Shown here piece after piece: positions 33,798 to 52,134 of a stretch of DNA of 64,000 nucleotides. The stretch's first letter is position 1, and every line of letters begins with the position of its first letter. The notes under the pieces were generated by a model. That model did not search any database and was not told the DNA's origin. It worked only from the letters and a program-made list of their open reading frames with translations. Origin of the DNA: Nitrosopumilaceae archaeon (GTDB lineage Archaea > Thermoproteota > Nitrososphaeria > Nitrososphaerales > Nitrosopumilaceae). Made by a program: the position numbers and the translations under genes. The stretch covers positions 576,001-640,000 of the forward strand of contig OZ242274.1 in the NCBI GenBank assembly GCA_965207375.1. Reading direction: 5' to 3'.

Positions 33798-34044
33798 ATA
33801 TGTATACTAAATATATACAAACGTAAATAAAAAGTTTACAATAAAATTTCTAGTATCTAAATCGTTTTGGTAAAGCAACAGCGATGCACTGAATACAATC
33901 TTTTGCTCTCTTCTGTCCAACAAGAGTGGGCAATCTAGACTGGATATAAACAGGTAAAACCCATACGTCCGTATACTAGAATCCTTGTAAGTGTTTACGT
34001 CGTGAACACATGATAACCACCCCTGCGCTGTACTAGTGATGAAT

Positions 34045-34150
34045 CGACCCCTGATTAGGTATGGGCTATGCGCCCTTGGTCGTGAATGGGGCAATCCGAG
34101 CTGCTGTGTAATTGGGCTACGCGCCCTGATAGATGTGTGCAGCTTCCGAT
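34045..34150 (+). ncRNA. Predicted bridge/seek RNA of IS1111 element 1 (target loop plus donor loop)
   Basis: Two loops with the internal hairpin GGGCTAYGCGCCC; guide segments match the target and the donor junction (see findings); ends approximate. Confidence 0.8.
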
Positions 34151-34185
34151 CCGTCAAAACATCCGTAAGGAGGTGAAAAGAAAGG

Positions 34186-35277
34186 ATGAAAACATACATT
34201 GGAATAGACATTGGAAAGAAAAAGTGTGACGTATGCGTCATAAATGGTACAGGACGAGTACTTGAGACCTGTCAGTATATGAACACGGTAGCAGATGCTA
34301 AAAAGTTTGCAGAAACCATGGCACGAAAATACACGGGAAATAAAAAAACATGCAGTGCTGCATGTGAAACTACAGGCAACATGTGGAATGTTACCTATGC
34401 TAAATTTGAGGCAGCAGGTATACCAATCAAGCTTGCAAATACGTACAAGATGGCCATAATTGCCAAGACTGGTAAAAAGACAGACAAGGTGGATGCACAA
34501 AAGATAGCACAGGTATTACGAATGGATATGATTCCAGAATGTTATGTACCAAAACCGGACATACGAGGAATACGTGCAATGATACGACAGCATATCAAGA
34601 TAGTACATGATAGGACACGAGTGATAAACAGAGTACGCAGTCTTTTAGACAGACATGATGTCTCAATTGATACAGTACAAGTATATGCAGTAAAGACAAT
34701 GCAGTATCTAGAGTCTGTATCTCTTGATGAAATACATGATGAAATAATTCTGCAGCAATATGTCCGACAGATCAGACATCTGACCGAAGAGTTGACCAAA
34801 ATGAATGATTACATAGAACAAGAGGCAGCAAACAACGAGTATGCCAAACTATTGACAAGCATGACAGGGATGGGAACATATACTTCATTGTTGCTAGCAG
34901 TCGAAATTGCAGACATTTCAAGATTTGATAATCCAAAGAAACTTGTTGCATGGGCAGGTCTGTGTCCTACCATACACCAGTCAGGAGATCAAAAATATCT
35001 TGGAAGGATGAAGAAACTAGACACCAACAGTATAGTGAATTGGGCAATGTGCGAGGCAGCAAATGTGGCAGTAACACATGACCCTAGGATGAAATCAATA
35101 TACGAATCTGCAAAAAGGCGACATGCAGACAAGCATGCACTTGCAGTTGTTGTAGTTGCAAACAAGATGATAACAATATCATGGCACATTCTGAACACAA
35201 AGACACCATATTCGTCACACAATACAAGATTGTATCAGCGCAAGCTTGCTAAATTGGAAAAGGCACGTCAGAAATGA
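34186..35277 (+). CDS. IS110-family DEDD recombinase (transposase)
   Basis: YIGIDIGK, ACETTG, KTDKVDA, AWAGLCPTIHQSG (catalytic Ser) and VANKM motifs. Confidence 0.95.
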   Translation: MKTYIGIDIGKKKCDVCVINGTGRVLETCQYMNTVADAKKFAETMARKYTGNKKTCSAACETTGNMWNVTYAKFEAAGIPIKLANTYKMAIIAKTGKKTDKVDAQKIAQVLRMDMIPECYVPKPDIRGIRAMIRQHIKIVHDRTRVINRVRSLLDRHDVSIDTVQVYAVKTMQYLESVSLDEIHDEIILQQYVRQIRHLTEELTKMNDYIEQEAANNEYAKLLTSMTGMGTYTSLLLAVEIADISRFDNPKKLVAWAGLCPTIHQSGDQKYLGRMKKLDTNSIVNWAMCEAANVAVTHDPRMKSIYESAKRRHADKHALAVVVVANKMITISWHILNTKTPYSSHNTRLYQRKLAKLEKARQK

Positions 35278-35479
35278 TTTGTACCTGTCAAATCCGGTAT
35301 TAAGCTTGCTAGCGTTAGCTATAAATGATATACTAAATAATTAGGCACGGAACGGAAACGCAATAGGGATACATCAAGGTACGCGCCGGGGTGGTTAACA
35401 TAGATGCCTAGATTTTGACCATTTACGATCAAATTTTTGGCAACATGATCTAAATGAGGTCAAATAGCCAAACCATACA

Positions 35480-36889
35480 TTGACAGATTTCAAAAAACTC
35501 TACAAAGCCGAACGAACTAAGAATCTAAAACTCGAACAGATGATGGAGTTGAAAGATGCCATGATCCAAAAAAAAGATGACAACGAAAAAAAACTAAAAG
35601 ATCTAGTAAAGGAGTTAGAAAACAACATACACAATTTGAAAACTATTGCCACTGATCTTAATAAAAAACTCCAATTTTATGATAACGCACACACTCCACC
35701 ATCACGCAAGATGCCAGAAAAGAAGAAAACTGATAATAAAAACAAGGATAAAAACAAGAAAACAACAGGTGAGCGAGGAGCACCAAAGGGACACAAAGGT
35801 GCAACAAGCAAGCCAAAACCTACAAAATTCAAACAACACACGCCAGCAAAATGTCCAGAGTGTGGCTCAAAAGATCTTAAAATTATCAAAACACAGATAC
35901 GTGACATTACAGAAGTACCGCCACAGGTACAACCTGAAACAACACGTCATCATGTAGATTTGTGCTCATGCAAAAACTGTGGCAAAAAAGACATAATCCC
36001 AGAGACTGATTTTCCTACAAAAGGCAATTATGGCAACAATATAGTAACACAGGCAGTAGCAAATTATATCGACAGACTACCTCATCGCAGAAACGCAGAA
36101 GCACTGACCTTGAGGGGAATCAAAATATCTCCAGCTTCTGCACACAACATAATAACCATGGTTGGTGCGTGCCTAACGGCACCCACAAAACAACTCCTAA
36201 AGGCAATCAGGGCTGCAGTCCTGTTACACATAGATGAGACATCAATACACCTAAACGGCAAAAACGTATGGGCGTGGGTATTTTACATTCCAGGTACAAA
36301 TACTGCACTGTATGTGGTACGGCCTAGCAGGGGAAGAGACGTACTCGAAGAGATACTAGGAGATGACTGGAAGGGAACAATCATCTGTGACGGACACAAA
36401 CCGTACATGGTATATGATATCCAGAGATGTTGGGCTCACATCATGCGTGAGATGCACCACGAGACACAAAAATGTGGATGTAAAAAATGTCTGGGTGCAC
36501 AAGAGGCTCTCAAGAAAATATATGAAGATGCAAAAGATACCATAACTGCACGTATCTCGTATAAACGGCGCAAAAAAATACGGCGCAATCTGTATCGTCG
36601 TGTAAAGAGAATTATTAACACATACACTCCATTGCACAATCTCAAAAGATTCATGGGAAAGCTGGGACGAGCCCTACCAAACCTGTTCAGGTTTGTGCTG
36701 GATCCTACCATACCTCCTACCAACAATACAGCAGAACGTGCACTGCGTGAGATTGTTGTACACAGAAAAATACGTGGTGGAATCAGATCCGAAAAAAGCA
36801 TGGAGACATTGGGCAATTTGTTTTCATGTGTGATGACTTGGAGAAATGCTGGATTAAATTATCTAGAAGAGATGGCAAAATACCTCTAG
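35480..36889 (+). CDS. IS66 TnpC-like DDE transposase
   Basis: Coiled coil, TPPS, GAPKGHKG, CPECG, HIDET, ICDG, QRCWAH and PTNNTAERALR motifs. Confidence 0.93.
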   Translation: MTDFKKLYKAERTKNLKLEQMMELKDAMIQKKDDNEKKLKDLVKELENNIHNLKTIATDLNKKLQFYDNAHTPPSRKMPEKKKTDNKNKDKNKKTTGERGAPKGHKGATSKPKPTKFKQHTPAKCPECGSKDLKIIKTQIRDITEVPPQVQPETTRHHVDLCSCKNCGKKDIIPETDFPTKGNYGNNIVTQAVANYIDRLPHRRNAEALTLRGIKISPASAHNIITMVGACLTAPTKQLLKAIRAAVLLHIDETSIHLNGKNVWAWVFYIPGTNTALYVVRPSRGRDVLEEILGDDWKGTIICDGHKPYMVYDIQRCWAHIMREMHHETQKCGCKKCLGAQEALKKIYEDAKDTITARISYKRRKKIRRNLYRRVKRIINTYTPLHNLKRFMGKLGRALPNLFRFVLDPTIPPTNNTAERALREIVVHRKIRGGIRSEKSMETLGNLFSCVMTWRNAGLNYLEEMAKYL

Positions 36890-36968
36890 AGACGTAAAAA
36901 CCACGTTAACACTTACAAAATAACTATTGTAGACTAGGTATTTATTCACGCCTGCAAAATACGGTGTT

Positions 36969-37637
36969 GTGAAGTATTACGTCACAATTTTCGTCCTTAC
37001 AATGTTAGTATGCGTGCCCGGATTTGCCCAAGAAATCAATCCCTCGTTGAATATAATCCCCGTTGAAATTCCAGCTGACGCATTTAATGTGGTTGCAAGA
37101 GATTCTGTCATTGTATCACTTGATGAGTTACAGCAAACAAGCTGGCAGGTCACCTTGGATAACGATCTTTTATATTCAAATCCGCAAGGTAATGCAGTAA
37201 TTCGATTATACGACAATGATAGACAAGACACCTTTATTGAAGTAGGAATGGGCAGTCCCCCTCAATACTCTTTTTGGGTTGCAGTACAGCTGCCAGAGGA
37301 AGGCTATGTTCCAATTTATAATGATTTGGAGCGGGGATGGAGCACCTCATCAAAAACAATCGTATCTTATACTGACAGGGCAGGCCTTACTGTCAACAAC
37401 GGGGCAAGAATTGTAGTTACCAATTTGGACATTGACGTTTTTGCAATCGACAGTTATTCGGTACACGGAAAACAAAGCTCAACTGATCCCCCAGCAATAA
37501 ATTCTGGCATTTATAGTGCCGAGTTTTTGTCAGGCGATCCATCTCAAAATATTTTCAGCCTATATCCATTCATTTTGGCTGCAGCTATAGGAATCCTAGT
37601 AGGTGTCTTGTTTTTAACTAAGAAACGCTCCTCTTAA
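36969..37637 (+). CDS. Secreted, C-terminally anchored hypothetical protein
   Basis: Signal peptide and C-terminal TM helix plus KKR. Confidence 0.75.
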   Translation: MKYYVTIFVLTMLVCVPGFAQEINPSLNIIPVEIPADAFNVVARDSVIVSLDELQQTSWQVTLDNDLLYSNPQGNAVIRLYDNDRQDTFIEVGMGSPPQYSFWVAVQLPEEGYVPIYNDLERGWSTSSKTIVSYTDRAGLTVNNGARIVVTNLDIDVFAIDSYSVHGKQSSTDPPAINSGIYSAEFLSGDPSQNIFSLYPFILAAAIGILVGVLFLTKKRSS

Positions 37638-38268
37638 AATAACTACAGTTTTTGCTTATTTTGCAGACATCACACATCGGTGAGACAGGCTTGCATATGT
37701 TTTGTCCATACATTACAAATGTATCGTTGATATCGATCCAGAACTTTTTAGGAATCTTTTTCATCAACGCCTGCTCTGTATCCTCGGGATTTTTTGTTTT
37801 GACTAGTCCCAATCGGTTAGAAATTCTATGTACGTGAATGTCAACTGGAATGGCAGGTTTTTCAAACGCATAAACTAGCACGCAGTTTGCAGTCTTTCTT
37901 CCCACGCCGGGAAGTTGTATCAATTTTTCAAGATTTTCAGGCACCACTCCGTTATATTGGGTGTGAATTACTCTTGCAACCTCTATGATTCTTTTAGATT
38001 TTACGTGATAAAAGCCAATTGCCCTAATTACCCTTTCAACATCTTTTATTTTGGCAGCCGCCAAATCCTTTGCGGTGGGATATCGTTTGAACAGCTCCTT
38101 TACAACCTTGGTAGTGCTTTCATCTCTAGTTCTTGCAGAAAGAATGGTTCCTATCAAAATACTAAACGGGCCGCCGGTTTCAGCCTCGTGCAGCTCTCTT
38201 AGTGCCGTCATTCTTGGCGGTTTTACAGAATTCATAGTCTTGTGCATTCCATCAAGAATCCGTTTCAT
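37618..38268 (-). CDS. nth: Endonuclease III
   Basis: ILSART, LPGVGRKTAN (HhH), VDIHVHR, Cx6Cx2Cx5C Fe-S motif. Confidence 0.95.
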   Translation of the reverse strand: MKRILDGMHKTMNSVKPPRMTALRELHEAETGGPFSILIGTILSARTRDESTTKVVKELFKRYPTAKDLAAAKIKDVERVIRAIGFYHVKSKRIIEVARVIHTQYNGVVPENLEKLIQLPGVGRKTANCVLVYAFEKPAIPVDIHVHRISNRLGLVKTKNPEDTEQALMKKIPKKFWIDINDTFVMYGQNICKPVSPMCDVCKISKNCSYFKRSVS

Positions 38269-38319
38269 ATTTCAAAAACCAACCATACAAGTATTATATC
38301 TGTCACTATGAGTTGTTGC

Positions 38320-39480
38320 GTGGAATTAACCAAACAAGAACAGGCCGCACTAAACGGCAAGTATGGTCAAGTCCAGCAACTAGCTTATAGAATTTTAGCT
38401 GCCACAGGCGAGGCAACTGACGCTGAAAGATTAATTCCAATTAAATGGGCACATCTTTCTGGCGTAAATTACAACACAATCGGTGATGCAGGAGAAGAAT
38501 TCCTCTCTAACTTGAGCAAAAACCCAGACGCACGTGTCAGGGTCAGAACAACTCTGAACCCCATGGGATTTGACAATGATACAGTTTCAGATTACAATCT
38601 AGATGAAAATTTCATCTCAAAACAGCTCAGTATCCGGGACTCTTATGAAACAATGGGAGTAATTCCATCCTTTTCGTGTATTCCGTATGAAATATTTGAC
38701 ATTCCAAAGGCTGGAACGCAGGTTGCCTTTGCAGAAAGCAACGCAGCCATTTATGCAAACTCTTTTGATAATCTAAAAACAAACAAGGAAAGCGCCTTTA
38801 GTGCATTGGCAAGCGCATTGACCGGAAAAAGTCCGTATTCTGCACTACGAAAAAATGACACTTCAGACATTACAATACAGATGAGGGTGAAAAATCCAGA
38901 CGAGCTTGCATATGGAATGTTGGGATTTTTTGCAGGCAAGGTAGGAAACAACTCTGTGACAATTTCTGGCGTATCTGATATGGATCGACGAAGCTGTAAA
39001 TCGATGTGCGGCGGCATGGGAACCTCTGGAACGTGCGCAAAATTTGAATTTGGAGCAGGCTCTGCTGATTCTGAAAAGATTGATTTTGACCAAAAGGAGA
39101 TGCAAAATGTCTACGATGAGCTAAATACTGCAGAAAAAGGCGACATCATAACACTAGGTAGTCCACAGCTTGGATTAGAAGAAATGCATGACCTGTCTTC
39201 CATGTTGCAAGGCAGATCATTTTCTAAAAACTGTCTCATCTTTTGCCCCAGATCCGTGCAGGAGCAGGCCACGCATCTAGGATATACCAATGAAATTAGA
39301 CGTGCAGGAGGTCAAATACTGTCTGACTGTTGTACGTGCTTGACCCCGTTAATTGATCCTGACAAAATTGATGCAGTTACGACCAACAGTATCAAGGGAG
39401 GCTATTATCTAAAAAACTCAACCGGGGTAGATGTAAATCTCAAACCGCTGTCACAAATTATCAAAGAAGAAACAAAATGA
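38320..39480 (+). CDS. Aconitase X large subunit (phosphomevalonate dehydratase large subunit-like); start uncertain
   Basis: AHLSGVNYNTIGDAG, TLNP, SCIPY, ESNA, LGSPQ, DCC and TNSIK motifs. Confidence 0.85.
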   Translation: MELTKQEQAALNGKYGQVQQLAYRILAATGEATDAERLIPIKWAHLSGVNYNTIGDAGEEFLSNLSKNPDARVRVRTTLNPMGFDNDTVSDYNLDENFISKQLSIRDSYETMGVIPSFSCIPYEIFDIPKAGTQVAFAESNAAIYANSFDNLKTNKESAFSALASALTGKSPYSALRKNDTSDITIQMRVKNPDELAYGMLGFFAGKVGNNSVTISGVSDMDRRSCKSMCGGMGTSGTCAKFEFGAGSADSEKIDFDQKEMQNVYDELNTAEKGDIITLGSPQLGLEEMHDLSSMLQGRSFSKNCLIFCPRSVQEQATHLGYTNEIRRAGGQILSDCCTCLTPLIDPDKIDAVTTNSIKGGYYLKNSTGVDVNLKPLSQIIKEETK

Positions 39481-39860
39481 AGGTAATTGTAAAGGGATGC
39501 GCAACGGATAAAATCCTCAAATCAGATAAACCAATTAATTTTCTTGGAACCGTTGACAAAAAAACAGGTCACATACAAGACAAAACGCACCCGTTATACG
39601 GCAAATCCGTCAAGGATTCTGTTCTTGTCTTTCCTTACGGTGTGGGTAGCAGTGTGGGTGCATATACCATATACTCACTAAAATCTAACGGCTGTGCACC
39701 TTCGGCGATGATCTGCAAAAAGGCAGATCTTACCGTTGCAACAGGATGTGCACTAGCAGACATCCCCCTAGTTCTGATAGGTGATGATGACTTTACCGGA
39801 TTAAATCCGGGACAATGTGTCAAAATAAATACAGAGTTAAAATCTATAATTCTTGTCTGA
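39477..39860 (+). CDS. Aconitase X small (swiveling, DUF126) subunit
   Basis: FLGTVD..TG, HPLYG.SV, VFPYGVGSSVG; coupled to the large subunit. Confidence 0.88.
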   Translation: MKVIVKGCATDKILKSDKPINFLGTVDKKTGHIQDKTHPLYGKSVKDSVLVFPYGVGSSVGAYTIYSLKSNGCAPSAMICKKADLTVATGCALADIPLVLIGDDDFTGLNPGQCVKINTELKSIILV

Positions 39861-40440
39861 TTTGCCCGTTTGGGCTAGTTTCTGCAAAAATGACTCCTTG
39901 AAATTTTAGTATCTCTGTATCTGCATCCTTCCAGCAATCTTTTTGCAGTCCTGACTTTTTGCAGGTATGCTCCAAAAACTCAACCGCGCTCCAATTATAT
40001 TTCACAGGCACCTGTGGTAGCAACAATCCGGAATTAAATCCATTTCTTACAACTAGTCCGTCCCTGCTCACTCTGATTTGATCCAGATATTGTTGGGCTT
40101 TTTCGACTTGAATTATCTTGGGTTCTGATAGTATGGTTACCTCAAAGGTAATCTCATCTAACTCTTCAATGCTAACTGTGGGAAATCTAGGATCACTTGT
40201 AGCTGCAGAAATTGCTGCCTCCTTTAGAGCAGAAGACAGGACTTTATCAGGAAATGGATATCCGATGCATCCTCTGAGACTGTTGTTTTTGTTCAGTGTG
40301 ACAAATACTCCAGAGGGATGTGCAAATTTTTCTAAAAATTCCTTGTTTTGTGATACAGTTTCAGATTTTGTCAAAAAATCCACTACTGATTTTCTTGCCT
40401 GCTTTACAAGCATTGCACCGTCCTCACTTGATACCTTCAT
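39844..40440 (-). CDS. AMMECR1-domain protein
   Basis: GVFVTL, LRGCIG, DPRF and GLLLPQV motifs. Confidence 0.93.
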   Translation of the reverse strand: MKVSSEDGAMLVKQARKSVVDFLTKSETVSQNKEFLEKFAHPSGVFVTLNKNNSLRGCIGYPFPDKVLSSALKEAAISAATSDPRFPTVSIEELDEITFEVTILSEPKIIQVEKAQQYLDQIRVSRDGLVVRNGFNSGLLLPQVPVKYNWSAVEFLEHTCKKSGLQKDCWKDADTEILKFQGVIFAETSPNGQIRQEL

Positions 40441-42349
40441 TTTGACCGTCTCCTAATTCGGTTATGTGTGATCCTCCTGCAGGCAAAACACGTACAAATT
40501 CGTCAAGGGGTATTGTTCTAGCAATATCTTGATGAATCTTTGTAAATTCCAGCTTTATCCTTTTTGCAGCTTCTGCCATGTCTCCACTAGAGGGCTCTAT
40601 TACTGCATAACACAGGCATTTATGCTTGATTGGTTCTAGAGGTCCGCATGTCAACAAATAATTTTCATCATACTGCAAAATTCCAACTGCAAGCTTTAGG
40701 GTTGCAATCTTTACTGCATTTCTTTGCCCTTCTATTATGAAAGATCCCTTTGCTAGAAACTGTCCACTCGGAGCTGCCTTTTTGATCTGTTCTGGAACGA
40801 CCCAATACGCCCCCATTCCGTACATTGCCTCCCTCCAAGCTCTACTAAAACAGACTGTTGCATGAGCCACCTCATTTAAGCTAGAGGTAGTAGCATCTGT
40901 TGCATTTTTTAAAATAAAAAACGGTGAGCCAAAAATTTCGGCATGAAAAACCTTGTCATTTTTTTCCAAGTGTTTTCGAATTACTGCTGAATTTGAGGAA
41001 GAGTCGCGTCCCCCTATTGCAATCATGTTATCTGATGTGAAAAACCAGCGATATCTTTGAAACCAAGTACGCTTTATGATCTCGTTGAATCCAATCTCTG
41101 TCTCGCTGTTTAGTGACTGGTTCTTTAGTTTCTCAATTTTTGCTTTCGTTTTTGATTTTTGTGATTCAATTGTAGATACTGCGTTTGCCTGTTTTTTTGA
41201 TTCATTAAACAGGGCAGATGCAATTGCCTGCAATGACGACTCTGCTTTGATTTGAATTTTTTCATCCTCAATTTTGATATGTGGAACACCCTTTATCGTG
41301 ACTAGTTCTGCATCTTGCTCTTTTAGCAGGTCGACTGCACGCTTGTCCTGTATTGATAATATTCCAATAGTGACAAATCTCATGATTTCCTTTGCTATTG
41401 CAGATATCCTGTCGGCTCTGCGTAAAACCGTCTCTATTGCCTTTGTCTGTTCTTCTAATTGACTATTATATTCCTCAATTTTTTTATTGCTGGCACTAGA
41501 CTGCATTTGTTTTCCTTCATCAATGATGTCTTCTGTAAATAATTGATCTAGACCCTCCATAAACGAGCTTACCGATTCTGTTGCGTCACTTGTCGGAATA
41601 CGTATCGGATAGATTTCTGAAACTTCCTTTCTCCTAACAATTATTGGTGTGTGTTTGCCGTCTATGATGTCGCTTACTAAATTATTTGTTGTACAAAATA
41701 ATTTTTTTATTTCTTGTGACGAAAGTGTATTGGATTCTTTTTTTGGATCCATTTGGGCCTGATTGAAAATTTCCTCAGCATACTTTTTTGGAAATCCAAG
41801 ATTCTTTCCAATCCATCTAACTGCCTCTGTTTGTGCATTTGATATCTCGTTGAATTGTTCTTCTTTGATATCGAAAATATTTAGACTGTTGCTTGGGGGG
41901 GCAACATACTTTAAACCAACTGAAAGTTTTCTGTGCCGTACATCAATTGAATGCAATAAAGCCAAAATTTTCATATCCGAATTACATAAAATTATATTCC
42001 CATCCCCAAATAACTCTGCAACCAAAACAAACTCTTTTTCAAAATTATTAAATGTCATATATGCGATACGTTCTGCACCTATCTGCTCAACTTTGATTAT
42101 TTTGGCACGAAGCAGGTCATTGCGCAATCGCTTCAACAGCCTGTTTGGCTCGATTGGATCAATTTTTTTTGTTGTAGTCCAGATACCTGATGTTGAGAGC
42201 ATCATAAACACATCTGGCTTTTCTGGATGATGCAGCTTGAACAGTAGACTGCTCCTTGTTATTCCGTATATGTTGCTTACATAGTAACCGCTGGAAATCT
42301 GTCCTATCTGATTTACCAAATATCGCAGTTCTATACCTGCAAGATTCAT
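40424..42349 (-). CDS. Ribosome quality-control protein Rqc2/NFACT family
   Basis: NFACT-N (QIGAERI, ELFGDGNIIL), coiled coil, WFQRYRWF, GGRD, FHA and GSFII motifs. Confidence 0.9.
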   Translation of the reverse strand: MNLAGIELRYLVNQIGQISSGYYVSNIYGITRSSLLFKLHHPEKPDVFMMLSTSGIWTTTKKIDPIEPNRLLKRLRNDLLRAKIIKVEQIGAERIAYMTFNNFEKEFVLVAELFGDGNIILCNSDMKILALLHSIDVRHRKLSVGLKYVAPPSNSLNIFDIKEEQFNEISNAQTEAVRWIGKNLGFPKKYAEEIFNQAQMDPKKESNTLSSQEIKKLFCTTNNLVSDIIDGKHTPIIVRRKEVSEIYPIRIPTSDATESVSSFMEGLDQLFTEDIIDEGKQMQSSASNKKIEEYNSQLEEQTKAIETVLRRADRISAIAKEIMRFVTIGILSIQDKRAVDLLKEQDAELVTIKGVPHIKIEDEKIQIKAESSLQAIASALFNESKKQANAVSTIESQKSKTKAKIEKLKNQSLNSETEIGFNEIIKRTWFQRYRWFFTSDNMIAIGGRDSSSNSAVIRKHLEKNDKVFHAEIFGSPFFILKNATDATTSSLNEVAHATVCFSRAWREAMYGMGAYWVVPEQIKKAAPSGQFLAKGSFIIEGQRNAVKIATLKLAVGILQYDENYLLTCGPLEPIKHKCLCYAVIEPSSGDMAEAAKRIKLEFTKIHQDIARTIPLDEFVRVLPAGGSHITELGDGQNEGIK

Positions 42350-43835: not shown

Positions 43836-44285
43836 ATGAGTAAGAGACGTAGCTCACAAGAAAAGGCTGGTATGGGTTTAAAAATTGAACAGCATACAGA
43901 CACAAAAATAGGACCACTAGAAGATTTGACAACAGGTAGTTCCTCGGCCAAAGTACTAGATTTTTTCTTAATATTTGATGAATTTGACTATAGTGAAGCA
44001 GACATAAGGCGAGGATCTAGTGTATCGCAAAGACACCTGTACCGAGTTTTACCCAAATTAGTAAAATACGGAATTTTAGAGCATACAAGAAAGTCAGGTA
44101 AATCAAAAATGTACAGATTAAACAAAAATGAAAAAGCAGTTAAACACTTAGAACAATTTGTGTTTTTGTTAGCTATGAAAAGAATAGAAAAATCGGAAAC
44201 ATGGCCAGACGAAGAAAGTAAAGAAATAGTACCAATTATTGAGCCTCAAAAAGAAATACAAGAAAACAGTATCACTGTAGAATAA
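43836..44285 (+). CDS. Winged-helix DNA-binding protein
   Basis: KVLDFFL...YSEADI...VSQRHLYRVLPKLVKYGIL..TRKSGKSKMYRLN. Confidence 0.75.
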   Translation: MSKRRSSQEKAGMGLKIEQHTDTKIGPLEDLTTGSSSAKVLDFFLIFDEFDYSEADIRRGSSVSQRHLYRVLPKLVKYGILEHTRKSGKSKMYRLNKNEKAVKHLEQFVFLLAMKRIEKSETWPDEESKEIVPIIEPQKEIQENSITVE

Positions 44286-44298
44286 AATCTATTTTTTA

Positions 44299-44355
44299 GT
44301 AAGTGTTAACGTCATGAACACATGATAACCGCCCTAGCGCAGGTTAGTGGTGAAT
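44299..44355 (+). mobile_element. Truncated IS66-B TIR / IS1111-1 left-end junction (second, diverged copy)
   Basis: GTAAGTGTTAACGTCA-TG-AACAC-ATGATAACCGCCCTAGCGC..., homologous to 33987-34044. Confidence 0.85.
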
Positions 44356-44461
44356 TTCCATCTACTGAAATTTATATGGATTCGTCAAAAATATAATTTC
44401 ACATGTACCATTATTCCAAATATTTCTTGCAATAGTTTAGATTTTAACTAGGAAAAATACA

Positions 44462-45193
44462 ATGTTTTTCATGCCAGGATTGATTGGAATCGGTGTGGGT
44501 CCAGGAGATCCTGATTTACTTACAGTCAAAGCAGTCAAAGCCATACAAAATGCCGACATTATCATGTGTCCTGCCTCAAAACAAGACAGACCAAGCATTG
44601 CACTATCCGTTGTAGAATCATTAATTGACAAATCTAAAAATCAGCAAATCATCAAGCTCATATTTCCCATGACAAAGGACAGAGACGTACTTGAGGCGAC
44701 TTGGAAAAAAAATGCAAAGATAATGGCAGAAACTGTATTATCTGGAAAAAACGTCGTGTATCTTACAGTAGGTGATCCATATTTGTATAGCACATGGATC
44801 TACATGCACAAGGATCTCACCGAAAATTATCCTGACATGCAAATTAGTGTCATTCCTGGTATTGTTTCAATGTTTACCTTTGCATCCAAGATAGGCGTTA
44901 GTATTGCAGAGGGTGCTGAAAAGGTGGCCATCATTCCATCCTGTTATGACCTGTCATCGGTAAAACAAATTGCAAAAAATTCTGAAACGCTGGTATTTCT
45001 AAAGGATGGCAGATATTTTGATCAGGTAGTAGACTTGCTAAAAGAATCAGGGTTTGCAGATGATTCTATCTTTGCAATAGGTCAAGATCTGGGTACTGAA
45101 AATGAAATTATTAAAAAGCTTACACTAGGCGAGGTCACAGACGGCACATTGACTACAAAGTATTTTTCAATCTTGGTGGTAAAGCGTGCCTAA
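44462..45193 (+). CDS. cbiL: Precorrin-2/cobalt-factor II C20-methyltransferase
   Basis: GVGPGDPDLLTVKA, FPMTKD, GDPYLYST and YFS motifs. Confidence 0.9.
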   Translation: MFFMPGLIGIGVGPGDPDLLTVKAVKAIQNADIIMCPASKQDRPSIALSVVESLIDKSKNQQIIKLIFPMTKDRDVLEATWKKNAKIMAETVLSGKNVVYLTVGDPYLYSTWIYMHKDLTENYPDMQISVIPGIVSMFTFASKIGVSIAEGAEKVAIIPSCYDLSSVKQIAKNSETLVFLKDGRYFDQVVDLLKESGFADDSIFAIGQDLGTENEIIKKLTLGEVTDGTLTTKYFSILVVKRA

Positions 45194-45956
45194 AGTCTTT
45201 TTTGTCGGATGTGGCCCAGGCGATCCCGATCTTATTACAGTAAAGGCCAAAAAACTAATTCAAAGGGCAGACATTGTAGTCTATTCTGGCTCCCTGATTC
45301 CAGACAAAATCCTAAAAATGTGCAAACGGGGAAAATTATATGATGCATCAAGGCTGGTCAGGGAAGAAATTTTTGACATTCTTTACACAAATGCCAAAAA
45401 AGACAAACTTGTAATTCGCCTGCATGACGGCGATCCATGCATTTATGGTGCAATACGTGAACAAATTGACAATCTAAAAACAAAGGAAATAGAGTCTGTT
45501 ATAGTTCCAGGCATCACTGCATTTTTGGCATCTGCTGCCGCACTAGCAACTCAGCTTACCCTTCCTGCTGTAACCCAAACCATCATTGTAACTAGGGCAG
45601 AATCACGTACCAAAGTTCCAAAACGCGAACAAATCTCAGAACTTGCAAAGCACAAAGCCACCATGACGTTTTACCTGAGTGTACATTTGCTATCTGATAT
45701 CGTAAAGCAGGCAATCAGGGGCGGATACAAAAAAGCTACACCCGTAGCCGTAGTGTACAGGGCAAGCTGGCCTGATCAAAAAATTATAACCGGAACACTT
45801 GATGATATCGCAAAAAAAGTAAGAGATCAAAAAATTACCAAGACCGCAATTGTGATTGTAGGCGACGTAGTAAAACCTACCTCATATGAGTATTCAAAAC
45901 TTTATGACAAGACATTTAGTCACGGCTATCGCAAGGCAAAATCTAAAAAGAAATAA
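45186..45956 (+). CDS. cbiF: Cobalt-precorrin-4 C11-methyltransferase
   Basis: GPGDPDLIT, YSGSL, RLHDGDPCIYGAIREQ, RASWPD, SKLYD..FSH motifs. Confidence 0.93.
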   Translation: MPKVFFVGCGPGDPDLITVKAKKLIQRADIVVYSGSLIPDKILKMCKRGKLYDASRLVREEIFDILYTNAKKDKLVIRLHDGDPCIYGAIREQIDNLKTKEIESVIVPGITAFLASAAALATQLTLPAVTQTIIVTRAESRTKVPKREQISELAKHKATMTFYLSVHLLSDIVKQAIRGGYKKATPVAVVYRASWPDQKIITGTLDDIAKKVRDQKITKTAIVIVGDVVKPTSYEYSKLYDKTFSHGYRKAKSKKK

Positions 45957-46695
45957 CTTTATTTTTTATCTTTAATTTTTTCAGATTGTTTTCAAATGTC
46001 TCATTTTTTCCGGTTACGTAAATCCTTAGCCTGTTTTTTGTCATCGGTTTGATTCTTTTAGAAATGTTTTTTGCAATGTTATCTGCAGGATCTAAAAATC
46101 TGACACCTGGAAACTGTCTTGCCAAATAATTTTCCAAAAAAGGCAAATGTGTACTAGACAGTGTTGCCGCATCAATTTTTTTATCTTCGATTATTTTTGC
46201 AAGCGTTTCATTAATTGTTTTTTTGGTTTTGTCTTTGTCGTTTAGAAAATCTCCAGACTCTACTAGATCTACAAGTTTTGAACAATTGATTTTATACACG
46301 TTTGTGTTCTTTGGCAATTTCATTTTGATGACATAATGTGACAACTCCCTACTTGCAACTGCAGCTTTTGTAGCTAGTATTGCAATATTTTTTGTCTTTG
46401 AAATTTTAACAGCCTGCTTTAGCGGCGGCAATACCTTGAATGTGTTTTTAGATCTTATATTCAAAATAATTGATGGCGTGTTTGAGCCAATTATGATAAA
46501 ATCTGGTCCAAATTTCTCCCTTATTTCCTTTATAGTTTTTTGGATAATTTTTGCAAGCTCTGATTTTGATTTGTTTCCATATGGAAAGCTTTTATGATCT
46601 GCAAAATAGATGATTTCACACTTTGTATTTTTCTGCAATGCCTTAATTATTGATAATGAACCAAGCCCCGAATCAAAAACTGCAATTTTTGCCAA
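45943..46695 (-). CDS. Glutamate racemase (MurI)-like protein with Ser at both catalytic Cys positions
   Basis: VFDSGLGSLSI, YFAD...PYG.KS, GSNTPS, ILAT and SSTHLP motifs. Confidence 0.82.
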   Translation of the reverse strand: MAKIAVFDSGLGSLSIIKALQKNTKCEIIYFADHKSFPYGNKSKSELAKIIQKTIKEIREKFGPDFIIIGSNTPSIILNIRSKNTFKVLPPLKQAVKISKTKNIAILATKAAVASRELSHYVIKMKLPKNTNVYKINCSKLVDLVESGDFLNDKDKTKKTINETLAKIIEDKKIDAATLSSTHLPFLENYLARQFPGVRFLDPADNIAKNISKRIKPMTKNRLRIYVTGKNETFENNLKKLKIKNKVISF

Positions 46696-46804
46696 TACTC
46701 TAGTTTTATCTAAAATCTGGAGATAATATTGGTTAGCTAAATTTAGCCTAAAGTTGATCTAAATATACACCCCCCATTAAGAGTAGATTTCTAAACAATT
46801 CATC

Positions 46805-47455
46805 ATGCCAAACTTTGACAAGAGTTGGGCTCGTCAAGAGACCCAAGGTGTAGGAAGCAAATTTCGTGAGGCAGTAAAGCCACAGGGTGCCTTAAAACCA
46901 CGCATCCAGACTGCGGTAAACAAGTTGCAGGTCCAAATATCCAAGATGGATTCCATGCTTACAAAACTACGTGAAAGAGATGCGCAACTCTTTCAGAGAA
47001 TTGTAGCTGCAATGCAGCAGCATGATACCTCGGCCAGCAAGGTTTTATCTAACGAATTAGCCGAAATACGCAAAGTATCAAAGATGCTTGGCAACGCAAG
47101 AATGTCACTTGAGCAGGTTCAAATGAGATTGACTACTATTCATGATCTCGGTGATGCAATGGTTGCAATCGGTCCAGCAATGTCAACAATGAAGGGATTA
47201 AAGTCATCGCTAGGACGGTTCATGCCAGAAGCAGATTCTGAGTTAAACTCCATGACACAGACACTTAATGGCCTCATGATGGACTCTCTTGCAGGAGATT
47301 CATTTAACATGGATTCTGATGTCTCAACTGAAGAGACCGATAAGATTCTACAGGAAGCCTCCGCAGTTGCTGAACAGCAGATTGGTGATAAATTCCCGTC
47401 TGTACCAACTCCAACCGGACGTTCGTCTGAAACATCTACTTCGTCATTTGAGTAG
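46805..47455 (+). CDS. ESCRT-III/Snf7 family cell-division protein (CdvB paralogue)
   Basis: Snf7 fold, SNELAEIRK, LEQVQMRL; paralogous to 19632-20270. Confidence 0.88.
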   Translation: MPNFDKSWARQETQGVGSKFREAVKPQGALKPRIQTAVNKLQVQISKMDSMLTKLRERDAQLFQRIVAAMQQHDTSASKVLSNELAEIRKVSKMLGNARMSLEQVQMRLTTIHDLGDAMVAIGPAMSTMKGLKSSLGRFMPEADSELNSMTQTLNGLMMDSLAGDSFNMDSDVSTEETDKILQEASAVAEQQIGDKFPSVPTPTGRSSETSTSSFE

Positions 47456-47734
47456 ATTGTAAAAAGACGTCTGTCATTCTTTTTGTTTTTTGGATTATCT
47501 TTAGACATCATCTGAATCTGGGTTTTTAGAAATACTAGTCCAAACGGTATAAAATCTGGACATTTTTCACATAAACTATTGCAAGTTTCTGTACCCTGTC
47601 AATCTTTTTAGGATTCAAACTCTAGTCCGTATCTGTCAAGTGTTACATAAAATCAGATTTTTTGTATTTGCCAACGTTATTCTGAATTTATGGTAATTAA
47701 ACATGAAATTACTTTGCCGTCAAAAAATAGAATA

Positions 47735-47762
47735 AAAATTTAGGCGTGACGTTAACACTTAT
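47735..47762 (-). repeat. Degenerate IS66-B left TIR
   Basis: Revcomp reads ATAAGTGTTAACGTCA-CG-CCTAA-ATTTT. Confidence 0.65.
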
Positions 47763-47811
47763 ACAGTTTAGAATCACGTGCACAATCTGTAAAAACACCA
47801 ATACTTGAGAG

Positions 47812-49275
47812 TCACGGATATGCCAACTCTTTAACTAGCAAGGAATCAACATCTGAAATTTTAACTCTAGACTGTTCCATAGAGTCTCGCCTTCTTATCG
47901 TTATTGTGTGATCCTCTAGTGTCTGATGATCAACTGTTATTGCAAATGGACAACCAACTTCATCTAATCTGCGATATCTCCTACCTATTGCTCCTGAATG
48001 ATCCAAGAACGCATCAACCTTTGTTCTAATCTCTTTAAAAATCTCGTCTGTCTTTTCTTTTAATCCATCCTTTTTTACTAGCGATAAAACTCCTACATGA
48101 ACCGGAGACAGGTATGGTCGCAAAGCAAGATAAATCCTTTCATTTTCAGCGTCTTTGTGTATGCAGTGTTCCAAAATAGTGTACAAGCTACGGTCTATTC
48201 CCATTGAGATTTCAAATACATGTGGCAAAACTTTTTGTTCATCATCCATCACCTCAAACTTTTCCTTGCTTTTCTTTGCGTGATTTGCCAAATCATAATC
48301 TGATCTATAATTACACGCTACAAGCTCAAGCCATCCTGTTGTTGTTTTGACTTCAAAATCAAAGGCAACTTTTGCATAAAATGCCTTTTCTTTGTCTCCC
48401 AATTTCCTAAATCTGCTTTGAGTCATATCAATTCCGGTCTTGCTGTAAAATTCGGCCAAAATTCCCAAATAATAGGCCACAAATTTGTTTGGAACCAAGC
48501 CTGTATCTATTGCCTGCTGACATGTAACCTGTTTTAATTCCGAATCCGTCTGTATCTGGATTTTTGTATCTTTGACCTCGTCAAACTTTTCTAATTCATC
48601 TAGCTTTTGTGGATTGCAAAACACCTCTATTTCTGCCTGATAAAATTCCCTTAATCGAAGCAAACTCCGCCTAGGCGCTATCTCGTTTCTAAAACTTTTT
48701 CCTACCTGTGCAATACCTTGCGGAAGTTTCCCCCTCATTATCTTGAACAATCTTGGAAAGTCAACAAAAATTGATTGGCATGTTTCAGGTCTCAAATATG
48801 CAGGTTCACCCTCTGGACCAATTCCTACCTGAAACATCATGTTGAATTTTCTCGTACTTTCAAAATCACCCTTACATTTTGTACACTTGATGTTATTTTC
48901 TAAAATCACCTTGTCAAATTCTGCACTATCTGCACTTTCAGGAATCTCAATATTGAAATTCTCTAAAATCATTCTATCTGCTCTAAATGTTGCCTTGCAC
49001 TTTGTACATTTTACAATTGGATCTGCAAAACTTGCAAGATGCCCTGATGCCTCAAACACTGATTTGGACATAATCTGGGATCCGTCAATCTCAAGCATGC
49101 CATCACGTCTGACCAATTCACGCCTCCACAGCTCCAAAAACTTGTTTTTCATACTTACACCGGGTGGACCATATTCCCAAAATCCTGCTTGTGCGTCTCC
49201 ATAAACCTCACAGCTTGGAAAGTAAAACCCTCGTTCTAGGGCAAGCTTCATCACATCATCATATTGCATGGACAT
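47812..49275 (-). CDS. glyS: Glycine--tRNA ligase (alpha2 type)
   Basis: EASGH, LRPETCQ, FRNEIAPR, REFYQAE, SGAIGRRYRR motifs. Confidence 0.95.
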   Translation of the reverse strand: MSMQYDDVMKLALERGFYFPSCEVYGDAQAGFWEYGPPGVSMKNKFLELWRRELVRRDGMLEIDGSQIMSKSVFEASGHLASFADPIVKCTKCKATFRADRMILENFNIEIPESADSAEFDKVILENNIKCTKCKGDFESTRKFNMMFQVGIGPEGEPAYLRPETCQSIFVDFPRLFKIMRGKLPQGIAQVGKSFRNEIAPRRSLLRLREFYQAEIEVFCNPQKLDELEKFDEVKDTKIQIQTDSELKQVTCQQAIDTGLVPNKFVAYYLGILAEFYSKTGIDMTQSRFRKLGDKEKAFYAKVAFDFEVKTTTGWLELVACNYRSDYDLANHAKKSKEKFEVMDDEQKVLPHVFEISMGIDRSLYTILEHCIHKDAENERIYLALRPYLSPVHVGVLSLVKKDGLKEKTDEIFKEIRTKVDAFLDHSGAIGRRYRRLDEVGCPFAITVDHQTLEDHTITIRRRDSMEQSRVKISDVDSLLVKELAYP

Positions 49276-49444
49276 TACTGATTTTTGGTTAGTAATTAAA
49301 TGCTAAGATCAAGTCATCAGACACTCAAATTTATAGTGGTCTTTACCATCAGTATCTATGTGCAGTCTTAATAAAGACTTGGTTGGATTTTGCTAGTTGG
49401 AGTATGACTTTCACTAGAACAATACTTTTTCAAAAATGAAGGTC

Positions 49445-49563
49445 GGAAATGTATCTATTCGGGCATTAAATCCCAGTACCATGCTTCATCCATTCATTAG
49501 GGTCAAAGTGTAGTTAGTTCCCCGGGCATCGAATCCCATACTGTGATCACACAAATCCCTAAC
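49445..49563 (-). ncRNA. Predicted bridge/seek RNA of IS1111 element 2
   Basis: Two loops with the internal hairpin GGG-ATTYRATG-CCC; guides GGAACTA/CAGTA and ATAGATA/ATGGT match target and donor; ends approximate. Confidence 0.85.
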
Positions 49564-49578
49564 CATAATGATATCATC

Positions 49579-50787
49579 TCAACTTCGCAGCTGACGTGCA
49601 GTGCTCTTTTGTCCCTCCTTTATACACGTCTCAAAATCAATCTGTTTAATCAACATCCAAAATACACTTTTTAATAATTTGGCAGCAGCTGCTACCCTGG
49701 CCTTTGACCTCCCACGCCTTTTTGCAAGACGTTTGTAAAACACACTAACAGGCGTATATGATTCCCTTTTCTCGGTGACTGCTAGATGTGTAACTACTGC
49801 CTCGACAAGTGCGTGTCTTACTAGAGATGCGCCCATCTTTGTTATGTGTCCATGATGGACAGTATCTGCAGAACGTCTAACTGATGGAACCAATCCAAAA
49901 TACGATGCCAGATGATCTTCATCAGAAAACCTTGCAATATCATCTATTTCAGAAGACAACACAAGTGCAGTATAGTTGGCTATTCCGGGTATCGTGGTGA
50001 GAAGTTGTGCGTTTTTATCCTCCTGTACCTGTTGTTTGATTTGCAGGTTGGCATACGTGATACTGTCTGTAACAGAGGCTAGATTCTTTAGATGCTGGTC
50101 TATTCTCCAGTTGTTTAGCTGGAGCAGTCTCTTTGTATATGGTCCACAAAACGGCGTTCCAGGTATGTCAATGCCTTCCTGTAACAAGATTCCGTGTATC
50201 ATGTTCTTAAAGCGAGTAGACTCTTGGACCATCTTGTGTCTGTATCTGACAAGCTGTTGCTTTTTTACAGTGTTTTCATCTGGTACATGGCATGCTGCAA
50301 CATAATCTCCACGCAGGAGGTCTGCAAGTATTTGCGCATCTACCTTATCTGTCTTCTTTTTAGACTCTGCAATGAGCCTTGTTTTGTATGGGTTAGATAA
50401 TGTTACGTCTAGTTTCAGCTTATCTGTGAGCATACGGTATATGCCGTACCATACAGATGATGATTCTAGTACGTATTTTGCATTCTTTGGCATTTTGGAA
50501 AACGCCTTTTTGATTGCAACCGGATTGCACTCTATCCTGCGGTTCTCATGCACCTTGCCGTCTTTATCCATTACTGCGACCTGCATGAATTTTTTGTGTA
50601 GATCTATTCCAACAAAGTATTTGGGTTTGGTTTTGGGGGTGTTGTTTTGGCCTGTCTTAGATGTCTTTACCTTTGAATTTGTTTTTTTGACAGACCTCAC
50701 ATTTTTTGGATTTTTTTTGCATAATCTGTTTGTTTGCTTTTTGGTAGCATTACCGGTACCATCTAAACCAGAGTTTTTTCGGGGCAC
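49579..50787 (-). CDS. IS110-family DEDD recombinase with Lys-rich N-terminal extension
   Basis: FVGIDLHK, VLESS, KTDKVDA, IPGI, YFGLVPSVRRSA and VAAAAKL motifs. Confidence 0.94.
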   Translation of the reverse strand: MPRKNSGLDGTGNATKKQTNRLCKKNPKNVRSVKKTNSKVKTSKTGQNNTPKTKPKYFVGIDLHKKFMQVAVMDKDGKVHENRRIECNPVAIKKAFSKMPKNAKYVLESSSVWYGIYRMLTDKLKLDVTLSNPYKTRLIAESKKKTDKVDAQILADLLRGDYVAACHVPDENTVKKQQLVRYRHKMVQESTRFKNMIHGILLQEGIDIPGTPFCGPYTKRLLQLNNWRIDQHLKNLASVTDSITYANLQIKQQVQEDKNAQLLTTIPGIANYTALVLSSEIDDIARFSDEDHLASYFGLVPSVRRSADTVHHGHITKMGASLVRHALVEAVVTHLAVTEKRESYTPVSVFYKRLAKRRGRSKARVAAAAKLLKSVFWMLIKQIDFETCIKEGQKSTARQLRS

Positions 50788-50816
50788 ATATGGTTAGTTC
50801 CGATTTTAAATCCAGA

Positions 50817-51974
50817 TCACGTCGATTTATTGGGGGGCGGCCAAGTTGAATGACACTCAAAATATGCATGAGCCATCTGCATTACAAAGGCTACAAGTGT
50901 AATATTGTATGTCTGATGGGCAACCTCTATCCGCGAATCTATCCATATGTTAGATAGGATTACAGCTACGATAAACATCAGCATCCGCATTGAGGAATTC
51001 TTGCTTGTGGTGTATGGACGTATAGATTTTACCTGCTTGTATCCCGTCTCAATCCCCCATCTCTTTTTGTATGCTTCAGGAATGTATTTCAACATGTCAT
51101 CAGAATCTGTACACGGAAGCGATGTTGCAAACACATGATATCTCTCAAAGATATTTTTTGCATCAGGTTTTTTGGGATTTGGTACTATGATCAAATTAAA
51201 TTCAAATCCATTATCAAAGGTATACTGTGATATTGCATCGCGCTTTCCTTGGGCATATTGAGATATTGCCTTTTTGATTCCCGCATTCTTTACTGCAGGC
51301 ATTATGAAATGTTTTTTGAGATTCTGTATTGTATCCATAACATCAGATGCATAAAACTCGCGGTCCAACAAGTATATGTTCACATCAGCACCCAAATTAT
51401 CGCATTTTTGTATGGTTTTACGCACGAATTCAGGGTTAAACTTGTTCCGAGTTACTGGAACCATTGCAAGATGAAATTCTTTTGCACCTGAGACCATCTT
51501 GGCAGTCATGTATGCTTCAAAGACGTATGTTCCTGCATGATGCTTTGAGTATACCATATCTGTCATGTCAGGGTCTTTGTCATAGTGTGGGATCTTGTGT
51601 TTGTCTATTGCTGCAACGCGCGTCTGGTTGTTGCCGTTTCTGCGGTCCAGCTTCATTTGGCGTACATCAACAGTATCGTGTATCATCTTTTCTCCATGTT
51701 TTATCATGTCGTCATGATCGATTGGGGTTATCTTTTGTACAAGCCAGTCTCCGCCTGGAATATCTATTCCTGAAGGAGCGTATTGGTGTGCACTGTTGGC
51801 AGCCACGCCGTATACTGACATGACCTGTAGCATGTTGACTGCGTTTGAGAGTCCATACCTCGTGTTGTTTCCTGTTCCAAACGAAATGGGCAGCCTGCCT
51901 AATGCAGATTGAAATACTTTAAACCCTCGTGTTCCGGATTTTATTGGGATATCTTGCCCATCTTTTTCTCTCAA
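50817..51974 (-). CDS. ISH3-family DDE transposase
   Basis: AAID, LLDREFY, FIMPA, FATS and YKKRWGIETGYK motifs. Confidence 0.9.
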   Translation of the reverse strand: MREKDGQDIPIKSGTRGFKVFQSALGRLPISFGTGNNTRYGLSNAVNMLQVMSVYGVAANSAHQYAPSGIDIPGGDWLVQKITPIDHDDMIKHGEKMIHDTVDVRQMKLDRRNGNNQTRVAAIDKHKIPHYDKDPDMTDMVYSKHHAGTYVFEAYMTAKMVSGAKEFHLAMVPVTRNKFNPEFVRKTIQKCDNLGADVNIYLLDREFYASDVMDTIQNLKKHFIMPAVKNAGIKKAISQYAQGKRDAISQYTFDNGFEFNLIIVPNPKKPDAKNIFERYHVFATSLPCTDSDDMLKYIPEAYKKRWGIETGYKQVKSIRPYTTSKNSSMRMLMFIVAVILSNIWIDSRIEVAHQTYNITLVAFVMQMAHAYFECHSTWPPPNKST

Positions 51975-52134
51975 GGTTAAGATGGGTAGGATTATTCCGT
52001 TATTTGGATCGGTATGTCAAAAAATATTGTCTAAATAGTGACCTGTGATCTATAATCGGAACTACTGACCATACATGTAATTGCCCAATCCTAATAATGC
52101 TCAATTGTCTAGTTTTTTCAAATTCTATCTTTTT

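Follow-up and report, generated by a model that had tools for sequence, protein, structure and literature searches.

Why do two recombinases of the IS110 family lie within the terminal repeats of two DDE-type insertion sequences (ISs) in one stretch of archaeal DNA? The stretch, hereafter the window, comprises 64,000 nucleotides (nt) from a Nitrosopumilaceae archaeon (GenBank assembly GCA_965207375.1, contig OZ242274.1, positions 576,001 to 640,000), and coordinates without a contig label count from its first letter. One element, here called A, splits the left end of an IS66-family IS, and the other, B, sits at the tip of an ISH3-like one. Our answer, in which we place good confidence, is that these are two distinct IS110-family elements, each directed by its own two-loop bridge (or seek) RNA to a site in the terminal repeat of a DDE IS. 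It is the sequence side of such a system alone that we see, namely junctions, empty sites, guide matches, co-variation between guides and flanks, and conserved helices; the circle, the chemistry and the expression would follow by homology to IS621 and to the ISEc11-type systems.

The boundaries of element A come from comparison with seven unoccupied IS66 copies and from the junctions of its four full copies. At 33987-34004 on the forward strand stand the outermost 16 nt of the left end repeat of IS66 and the TG core (34003-34004); the body of A, 1400 base pairs (bp) long, follows at 34005-35404 (forward), with a second TG core at 35405-35406, and the remaining host, a single-gene IS66 with the right end ..AACACTTAC, extends from 35407 to 36916 (forward), its transposase gene at 35480-36889 (forward) scoring 237.5 bits on NF033517 (cut-off 180). 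The insertion severs the outer 16 nt of the end repeat from its remainder by 1.4 kilobases (kb). Both the GTAAG with which the end repeats start and the single-gene subgroup we take to be typical of the IS66 family.

In the genome around the window, the prolyl-tRNA synthetase shares 78-81% identity with those of Nitrosopumilaceae records, so that the host is an ammonia-oxidising archaeon. That genome (4.3 megabases (Mb) in four contigs, in which element copies were counted by BLAST of the region against the whole) holds eight full IS66 copies, one occupied and seven unoccupied; the seven lie on the same contig, and their left end reads GTAAGTGTTTACGTCG-TG-CCTAGATTTTG. Element A has four full copies, besides fragments, and the three beyond the window (98-99.6% identical) stand at the identical nucleotide of IS66-type ends, one in a short IS66-derived remnant and two in diverged ends. 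A perfect 14-nt target of A is found unoccupied at three places in the 4.3-Mb genome, all three in IS66 left ends. The ends of A have the geometry TG+AACAC+ATG ... CAT+AGA+TG and carry a sub-terminal inverted repeat, ATGATAACCACCCC / GGGGTGGTTAACAT, that matches at 13 of 14 positions (10-19 matches in A-type relatives). Its recombinase (34186-35277, forward; 363 amino acids) is of the IS110-family DEDD type, as judged from Pfam (DEDD_Tnp_IS110, E = 1.6e-27; Transposase_20, E = 4.7e-21), from 223.8 bits on the NCBIfam model NF033542, 'IS110 family RNA-guided transposase' (cut-off 140), and from similarity to ISCro4 and IS621. An 8-bp target duplication accompanies six of the eight full IS66 copies and is missing from the occupied copy and from one other; the flanks of the occupied copy read GAATCCTT on the left (33979-33986) and AAAATAAC on the right (36917-36924), and recombination between IS66 copies may account for this.

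Junction comparison places the 1440-bp body of element B at 49355-50794 on the reverse strand. On one side of it (49345-49354) stand the duplication ACCAT of the ISH3-like host (49345-49349), the tip CAG of the host's end repeat (49350-49352) and the TA core (49353-49354); on the other, a second TA core (50795-50796) leads into the rest of the host (50797-52067, reverse, from copy comparison), which contains a DDE transposase gene (50817-51974, reverse) whose best family is NF033541, at 137.1 bits below the cut-off of 225, with Pfam DDE_Tnp_1 at E = 9e-7. The host has end repeats, and its 5-bp duplication ACCAT, which recurs at 52068-52072, is intact on both sides of the occupied copy. In the orientation of the element the flanks are ..AATCGGAAC-TA-(body)-TA-CTG, where the CTG supplies the final 3 bp of the ISH3-like end repeat; the end geometry is TA+ACCAT+ATG ... 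CAT+AGA+TA. The recombinase of B (49579-50787, reverse) has 402 amino acids if started at a GTG within the left sub-terminal repeat; the IS110 profile begins at residue 58, and the N-terminal stretch is, by eye, open in frame in relatives as well. It too carries the two Pfam domains (DEDD_Tnp_IS110, E = 4.3e-23; Transposase_20, E = 5.2e-21), scores 217.7 bits on NF033542 (cut-off 140), and is 28% identical to protein A. There are two full copies of B in the genome, besides fragments, the second of them in the other of two kinds of ISH3-like end. One of the three full ISH3-like copies in the genome is occupied, and the sole perfect unoccupied 12-nt B target is the opposite end of that same copy, in the far end repeat at 52056-52067.

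Several further features of B and its hosts were seen. In the two unoccupied ISH3-like copies, all four ends (G000:C1 near 1428551, 1429815, 1678472 and 1679736) have G for C next to the TA core, which may be fortuitous or mark a variant able to evade insertion. The three B copies with a preserved right-hand junction (49346-49354; G000:C1 near 1528332 and 47131) have the flanks CA-N-CAGTA, so that conservation extends two bases past the tip of the host IS; a longer right guide, UCACAGUA, in which one base bulges out would be in keeping with this, and with three copies the conservation may be chance. A decayed B-like copy (G000:C1, about 355650-355910) has a right end with a 51-bp tandem duplication of the end itself, and a target loop that is without its 5' half.

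Outside its gene each element carries two loops built on one pattern, right-guide(5)-NN-T-GGG..CCC-NN-left-guide(7), and a regular-expression scan for that pattern returned exactly these four loops and one extra match outside element B. In folds, each takes the form of an internal loop that a short G+C hairpin and an outer stem close off. The predicted bridge-type RNA of A (34040-34150, forward; from loops, co-variation and helices) lies upstream of the gene in the 181-nt left end, with a target loop at 34055-34084 (right target guide TTAGG, left target guide GGTCGTG) and a donor loop at 34106-34135 (right donor guide GTGTA, left donor guide ATAGATG), both on the forward strand. The predicted bridge/seek-type RNA region of B (49355-49578, reverse; from loops and co-variation) lies downstream of the gene in the 224-nt right end, and its loops, also on the reverse strand, are a target loop at 49545-49515 (right guide CACAG + TA, left guide GGAACTA) and a donor loop at 49482-49452 (right guide ATGGT, left guide ATAGATA). 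Left guides consist of five flank or end bases and the core; right guides are complementary to the five bases after the core. In A, the left target guide matches at 6 of 7 positions (GGTCGTG against CGTCG-TG), the left donor guide at 7 of 7 (ATAGATG against ATAGA-TG), the right target guide at 4 of 5, or 5 of 5 with a G:U pair (TTAGG against CCTAG), and the right donor guide at 4 of 5 (GTGTA against AACAC). In B, both left guides match at 7 of 7 and the right donor guide at 5 of 5 (ATGGT against ACCAT).

An earlier note on this DNA, made from the letters alone, had placed IS110-family elements inside terminal inverted repeats of IS66 and ISH3-like hosts, and domains and empty-site junctions bear this out. 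The features it ascribed to both elements were found again, namely the end geometry core+5 nt+ATG ... CAT+AGA+core, the donor-left ATAGA (in the donor sites ACATAGA-TG and ACATAGA-TA) and the loop pattern, which all four loops fit, as were the differences it listed, in core (TG against TA), in target guides and in the position of the RNA (upstream against downstream).

Because the elements match the known bridge- and seek-RNA systems in all testable features, we take the published cycle of those systems as the mechanism. The element would excise as a circle in which the right end, the 2-nt core and the left end are joined, giving the donor site ACATAGA-TG-AACAC for A and ACATAGA-TA-ACCAT for B. 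The donor loop of the RNA would pair with this junction, and the target loop, in A, with CGTCG-TG-CCTAG of the IS66 left end and, in B, with GGAAC-TA-CTG at the ISH3-like tip; the recombinase would then exchange strands at the core, leaving the element flanked by the core on both sides in a fixed position and orientation. Two observations on B-type elements, made by eye, touch on the circle. All the right ends (49355-49400; L057, L033, L034, L035 and L018) have an A/T-rich box that resembles TATA and precedes the CACAT of the right repeat by about 11-12 nt, and the recombinase can be read in open frame starting with the GTG in the left repeat (50780-50794, reverse), with a similar N-terminal peptide in relatives. 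With the box in the right end and the frame open from the left repeat, transcription could begin only where the two ends are joined in a circle.

If guides direct insertion, guides and flanks should change together, and we looked at this in relatives. Searched with proteins A and B, 201 genomes of the same archaeal order yielded homologues of A in 30 (E<=1e-20) and of B in 25 (E<=1e-30), the window's own genome being counted in both. The ends of relatives were placed by rule, and only clear-ended elements were kept, 13 A-type and 9 B-type; this set of 22 includes the A and B of the window and treats all copies of an element as one. Across both loops the A-type left ends can be aligned well, and guides were read at the columns of window A's guides and scored as mean matches over the five non-core positions, to the element's own flank or end and to those of other elements. 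With permutation figures read as upper bounds on the strength of the evidence, the own flank scored higher for the left target guide (4.38 against 1.65), the right target guide (3.77 against 1.90), the left donor guide (5.0 against 3.95) and the right donor guide (4.08 against 2.55) of the 13 A-type elements, each equalled in 0 of 20000 permutations. Among the nine B-type elements the left target guide reached 36 against 14.7 expected (0/20000), the left donor guide 45 against 36.6 (2/20000) and the right donor guide 36 against 32.1 (244/20000).

The clearest pair is L005 and L006, sister elements from two genomes of one genus. The first has the target guides CTTGTTG (left) and TTGTG (right) and the flanks CTTGT-TG-CCCAA, the second TGTGTTG and TTATG with TGTGT-TG-CATAG, and both guides differ exactly as the flanks differ. 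The recombinase might instead recognise the end repeats itself, the loop matches being a by-product of shared end ancestry, and the conserved donor-side ATAGA and ATG..CAT speak for such protein-read targets; indeed, since donor-side sequences are conserved (left donor guides already score 3.95 of 5 across pairs), donor guide matches weigh little when taken alone. We give this explanation hardly any credence, for target guides change between sisters as the flanks do (L049/L050 as well as L005/L006), and permutations of the left target guide equal the observed score in neither clade (0/20000 in both).

The RNA itself is conserved in shape among A-type elements. In a MAFFT alignment of the 13 sequences, a four-helix structure of 18 pairs has 91.8% of its cells paired, against 71.4% after shuffling (0/500) and 31-48% in slid controls, and 12 of the 18 pairs have changed on both sides in a compensatory manner. 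Five of six B-type RNAs fold alone into two modules, and the segment of the window's own B folds differently; in the alignment of the B clade the hairpins stood out of register. Together, guides and flanks support the reading that relatives in the same archaeal order retarget through guide change. One left target guide, GGTTCTG, was seen in elements of both gene orders, L009 (and, by eye, L010) with the RNA upstream and L039 and L041 with the RNA downstream; the left flank is GGTTC-TG in three of these four and GATAC-TG in L041, and the two architectures seem aimed at one kind of site.

What, then, do the relatives insert into? For this, open frames beside each junction were scanned against Pfam, and end repeats of a host were sought on 10-kb loci. 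Ten of the 22 elements are clearly IS-associated, three weakly, and for nine no IS neighbour was found. Besides A in IS66 and B in its ISH3-like host, the clear cases are L005 and L006, with an IS5-type transposase 153 and 226 nt away; L049, with the start of an IS1595 transposase 135 nt away; L013, whose junction is 11 nt beyond the 20-bp end repeat of a DDE_Tnp_1 element of about 1 kb; L034, 20 nt inside the 18-bp end repeat of an element of about 1.15 kb; L018, 18 nt beyond a 27-bp end repeat; L033, with a DDE_Tnp_4 open frame starting at the junction; and L035, with a DUF4096 (IS4/5-type) frame 355 nt away. Two 100%-identical inverted copies of L005 (genome G200) flank a 1007-bp IS5-type element, at the sites CTTGT-TG-CCCAA and TTTGT-TG-CATAA, so that both its tips are occupied. 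The weak cases are L002 (half a DDE_Tnp_1 frame 49 nt away, with two sister copies in a palindromic repeat of about 70 bp), L011 (DDE_Tnp_1 at 22 bits, just under the cut-off) and L050 (an IS240-type fragment). The Pfam scan of adjoining frames gave no IS neighbour for L003, L007, L009, L012, L026, L057/L032, L039, L041 and the decayed B-like copy of the window's genome; neighbours in such cases include a PIN gene 5 nt away, a histidine kinase and a formyltransferase. The seeded search on the 10-kb loci recovered end repeats for L013, L034 and L018 and none for L049, L033, L002, L011, L005, L006 and L050, and 30-nt inverted copies of the empty sites within 4-kb loci were at background only (15-21 of 30 matches).

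In genome G038, two of three copies of an A-type relative (L068 and L069, G038:C1 near 1327000 and 1543000) stand in the middle of a palindromic unit of about 70 bp with inverted-repeat arms, resembling a repetitive extragenic palindromic (REP) sequence or a miniature inverted-repeat transposable element (MITE), and at the left tip they are unlike the third copy, L067. L013 and L051 (G117) share a right flank with ACATAGATG 6 nt after the core, which resembles the right end of another A-type element; this may be a case of one IS110 that entered next to what is left of another. A third IS110 type, in three copies with another end geometry, is present in the window's genome (G000:C1 1769685-1770815, 2084788-2085861 and about 999404-1000450), and one of these copies has a right flank similar to that on the right of an A copy (near C1:12374) and to one beside the decayed B-like copy (near C1:356000), which suggests that they share a small host repeat.

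Could nesting of this kind be fortuitous, IS110 and DDE elements piling up in tolerant regions with no sequence-specific targeting? The region is rich in mobile DNA, and the flanks of several relatives (e.g. L050, L051) hold fragments of more than one IS, as such an account would have it. We consider it very improbable all the same: independent copies sit at the same nucleotide and in the same orientation, the guides match the sites, and all perfect 14-mers lie in IS66 ends. IS ends are, moreover, over-represented, since the binomial probability of at least 9 IS cases among 22 is 0.003 even at 15% IS content, a rough figure given that the elements are related, and one computed at nine, one under the final ten (L035 was added later). 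The 15% is the maximum IS content given for any archaeon in the part of PMC13343696 drawn on here.

The earlier note went further and read the elements as a hyperparasitic clade that retargets by guide change to IS ends and could act as an RNA-guided brake on IS spread. Its retargeting part stands, in that guides co-vary with flanks and IS ends recur; the specialisation does not, with nine of 22 relatives lacking an IS neighbour. Relatives in non-IS sequence, which the note had held to be damaging if in the majority, come close to that (nine with none and three weak), and among the ten clear cases three junctions lie 11 or 18 nt outside or 20 nt inside an end repeat. A dedicated brake, in which IS-end specialists split the end repeat and so disable the host IS, would be in keeping with the ends of at least five DDE families being used in the ten clear cases, with occupation of both ends of one IS5-type copy, with the 16 nt of IS66 set apart by 1.4 kb, with the base change beside the core that all four ends of the unoccupied ISH3-like copies carry (if an escape variant), and with the existence of only one composite of A with a full IS66. 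We judge it improbable. Besides the relatives without an IS neighbour, some of them in a palindromic repeat, and the three junctions that are beside an end repeat and not in it, occupancy is low (1 of 8 full IS66 copies, 1 of 3 full ISH3-like ones), the three perfect A targets are still empty, and no decay of the host is visible, because the occupied IS66 is 99.5-99.8% identical to the most similar empty copies.

Guide-directed insertion offers its own account of the recurrence of IS ends. IS ends occur in many copies and would do the cell no harm, and guide variants that match them would persist; for that reason they would be a frequent but not the sole target of the lineage. A bolder hypothesis is that one Nitrososphaerales lineage of IS1111-like elements, with common geometry and loop grammar and two gene orders, has repeatedly been reprogrammed onto the ends of at least five DDE IS families, can occupy both ends of one copy, and is a true hyperparasite that splits the end repeats of its hosts and lowers their transposition, the hosts escaping by a base change next to the core. 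Taken as a whole we find this doubtful. Should the RNA-upstream order have originated within this lineage, the bridge RNA would have moved between element ends a second time, independently.

Some results count against RNA-guided targeting of IS ends as set out above. The right target guide of B (CACAG+TA against TA-CTGAT) matches at 5 of 7 positions including the core, and at only 3 of the 5 non-core ones; across the B clade this guide, read at fixed alignment columns, is not significant (5931/20000). When core+5 was instead slid along the loop's 5' side, the score was 44 against 38.1 (123/20000), with the best match directly before the hairpin in five of six elements with a normal loop. One B-type element has a copy, L032, whose left guide agrees at no more than 3 of 7 positions. 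A permissive Rfam scan of 33000-53000 gave no bridge-RNA family, its sole match being a chance small nucleolar RNA, and single-sequence folds have the two-module shape at energies no better than those of shuffles (z -0.51 and +0.74), for which reason co-variation was used instead. The permutation figures overstate the evidence, because the relatives are not independent, and the preference for IS ends is, with nine of 22 relatives lacking an IS neighbour, a tendency and not a rule. Contigs of four public runs, which break at IS borders, contained neither a circle junction nor an informative empty site; two odd joins in such contigs, 36885 to 33800 (runs X1 and X2; going back 3086) and 44372 to 49350 (skipping 4977), probably come from other repeat copies.

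These elements provide clean, base-resolved natural examples of bridge/seek-RNA targeting in archaea. Because there are empty sites, several copies of an element and sisters whose guides have changed, genomes alone suffice to read the rules of targeting: a left guide of 7 nt with the core included, a right guide of 5 nt, and TG or TA as the core. They also show the ends of other mobile elements to be a common landing place of the IS110 family in ammonia-oxidising archaea, which bears on interaction between ISs and on the annotation of nested elements. That one mobile element restrains another is an ecologically attractive idea, and one with little likelihood. The two recombinases are further candidates for tools and bring no new principle; the earlier note called them compact and possibly orthogonal, and at 363 and 402 amino acids they are no smaller than the solved chains of IS621 and ISCro4 (328 and 341 residues).

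How do A and B compare with systems already described? In bacteria, IS4321 and IS5075, of the IS1111 group, reportedly insert in terminal inverted repeats that belong to transposons of the Tn21 family, as Partridge and Hall are said to have described in 2003, and IS1383 is said by Muller and colleagues (2001) to target the inverted repeats of IS1384 in Pseudomonas putida H. IS4321 and IS5075 resemble our elements in being IS110-family elements with sub-terminal inverted repeats and a fixed place in the terminal repeats of another transposon; they differ in being bacterial with Tn21-family hosts, whereas the hosts here are IS66 and an ISH3-like element of an archaeon, and the RNA of A lies upstream of the gene. 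IS1383, compared by title only, is likewise an IS110-family IS that specifically targets the end repeat of another IS, and is bacterial.

For the RNA-guided mechanism, the closest models are IS621 and ISCro4 (Durrant 2024, PMC11208160; structures 8wt6 and 9t56), which, as far as the parts of these sources used here go, share with A and B a DEDD recombinase, a core of 2 nt and a two-loop RNA that has a left and a right guide for the target as well as for the donor. The RNA of IS621 is in the left end, as in element A. Protein similarity to IS621 and ISCro4 is distant (E values of 5.1e-14 and 1.1e-15 for A, 2.5e-6 and 9.7e-8 for B), and the cores TG and TA are unlike theirs. Insertion at a specific site with a 2-nt core and no longer target duplication, a feature of the IS110 family, is seen in both A and B when occupied and empty sites are compared.

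Within that family, the sections of PMC11208160 and PMC11187229 consulted place the RNA in the left end in the IS110 group and in the right end in the IS1111 group. According to the same portions, sub-terminal repeats are 2-3 bp in the IS110 group (PMC11208160) and 7-17 bp (PMC11208160), usually 11-13 bp (PMC11187229), in the IS1111 group, whose hallmarks also include terminal extensions, 7 nt long at the left end and 3 nt at the right (PMC11187229). Element A, with 13 of 14 repeat positions matching, has of the IS110-group pair (left-end RNA, 2-3-bp repeat) the left-end RNA only; B has its RNA in the right end, as in the IS1111 group, a downstream position that A lacks, and a 6-bp sub-terminal repeat (ATGTGC/GCACAT; 5-9 bp in relatives) that is borderline for that group. 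The 7- and 3-nt extensions appear in A, B and relatives if the core is counted on the left, as core(2)+5 before ATG and 3 after CAT, and IS1111-type ends go together with an upstream RNA in all 13 A-type elements. The IS1111-group seekRNA elements ISEc11, ISPa11 and ISKpn4 (Siddiquee 2024, PMC11187229, as excerpted) resemble B in having the RNA downstream of the gene and share sub-terminal repeats; their targets, a short linear site, REP sequences and attC sites, are unlike the IS ends used here.

Among archaeal elements, the nearest named IS to protein B is ISHvo9 of the Haloferax volcanii plasmid pHV4 (NC_013966.1; 37% identity over 81% of the query, E = 2e-45), which likewise has a long non-coding stretch downstream of its gene and belongs to another phylum; the nearest relatives of protein A among plasmid records are haloarchaeal IS110 transposases, at about 33%. 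A preprint, in the portion drawn on here, reports 662 archaeal IS110 recombinases (bioRxiv 10.1101/2024.06.21.599552). Among the matches listed, our literature search found no title or abstract on archaeal IS110 elements aimed at IS ends, although the supplementary tables of PMC11208160 and PMC11187229, with predicted RNAs and targets of ISfinder entries, may contain cases, and it found nothing that pairs IS110 with hyperparasitism. The habit of inserting into the ends of other mobile elements is thus already known from bacteria, and what the present locus adds is an archaeal case of notable local richness, in which one window holds two families and sister elements reveal the guide retargeting.

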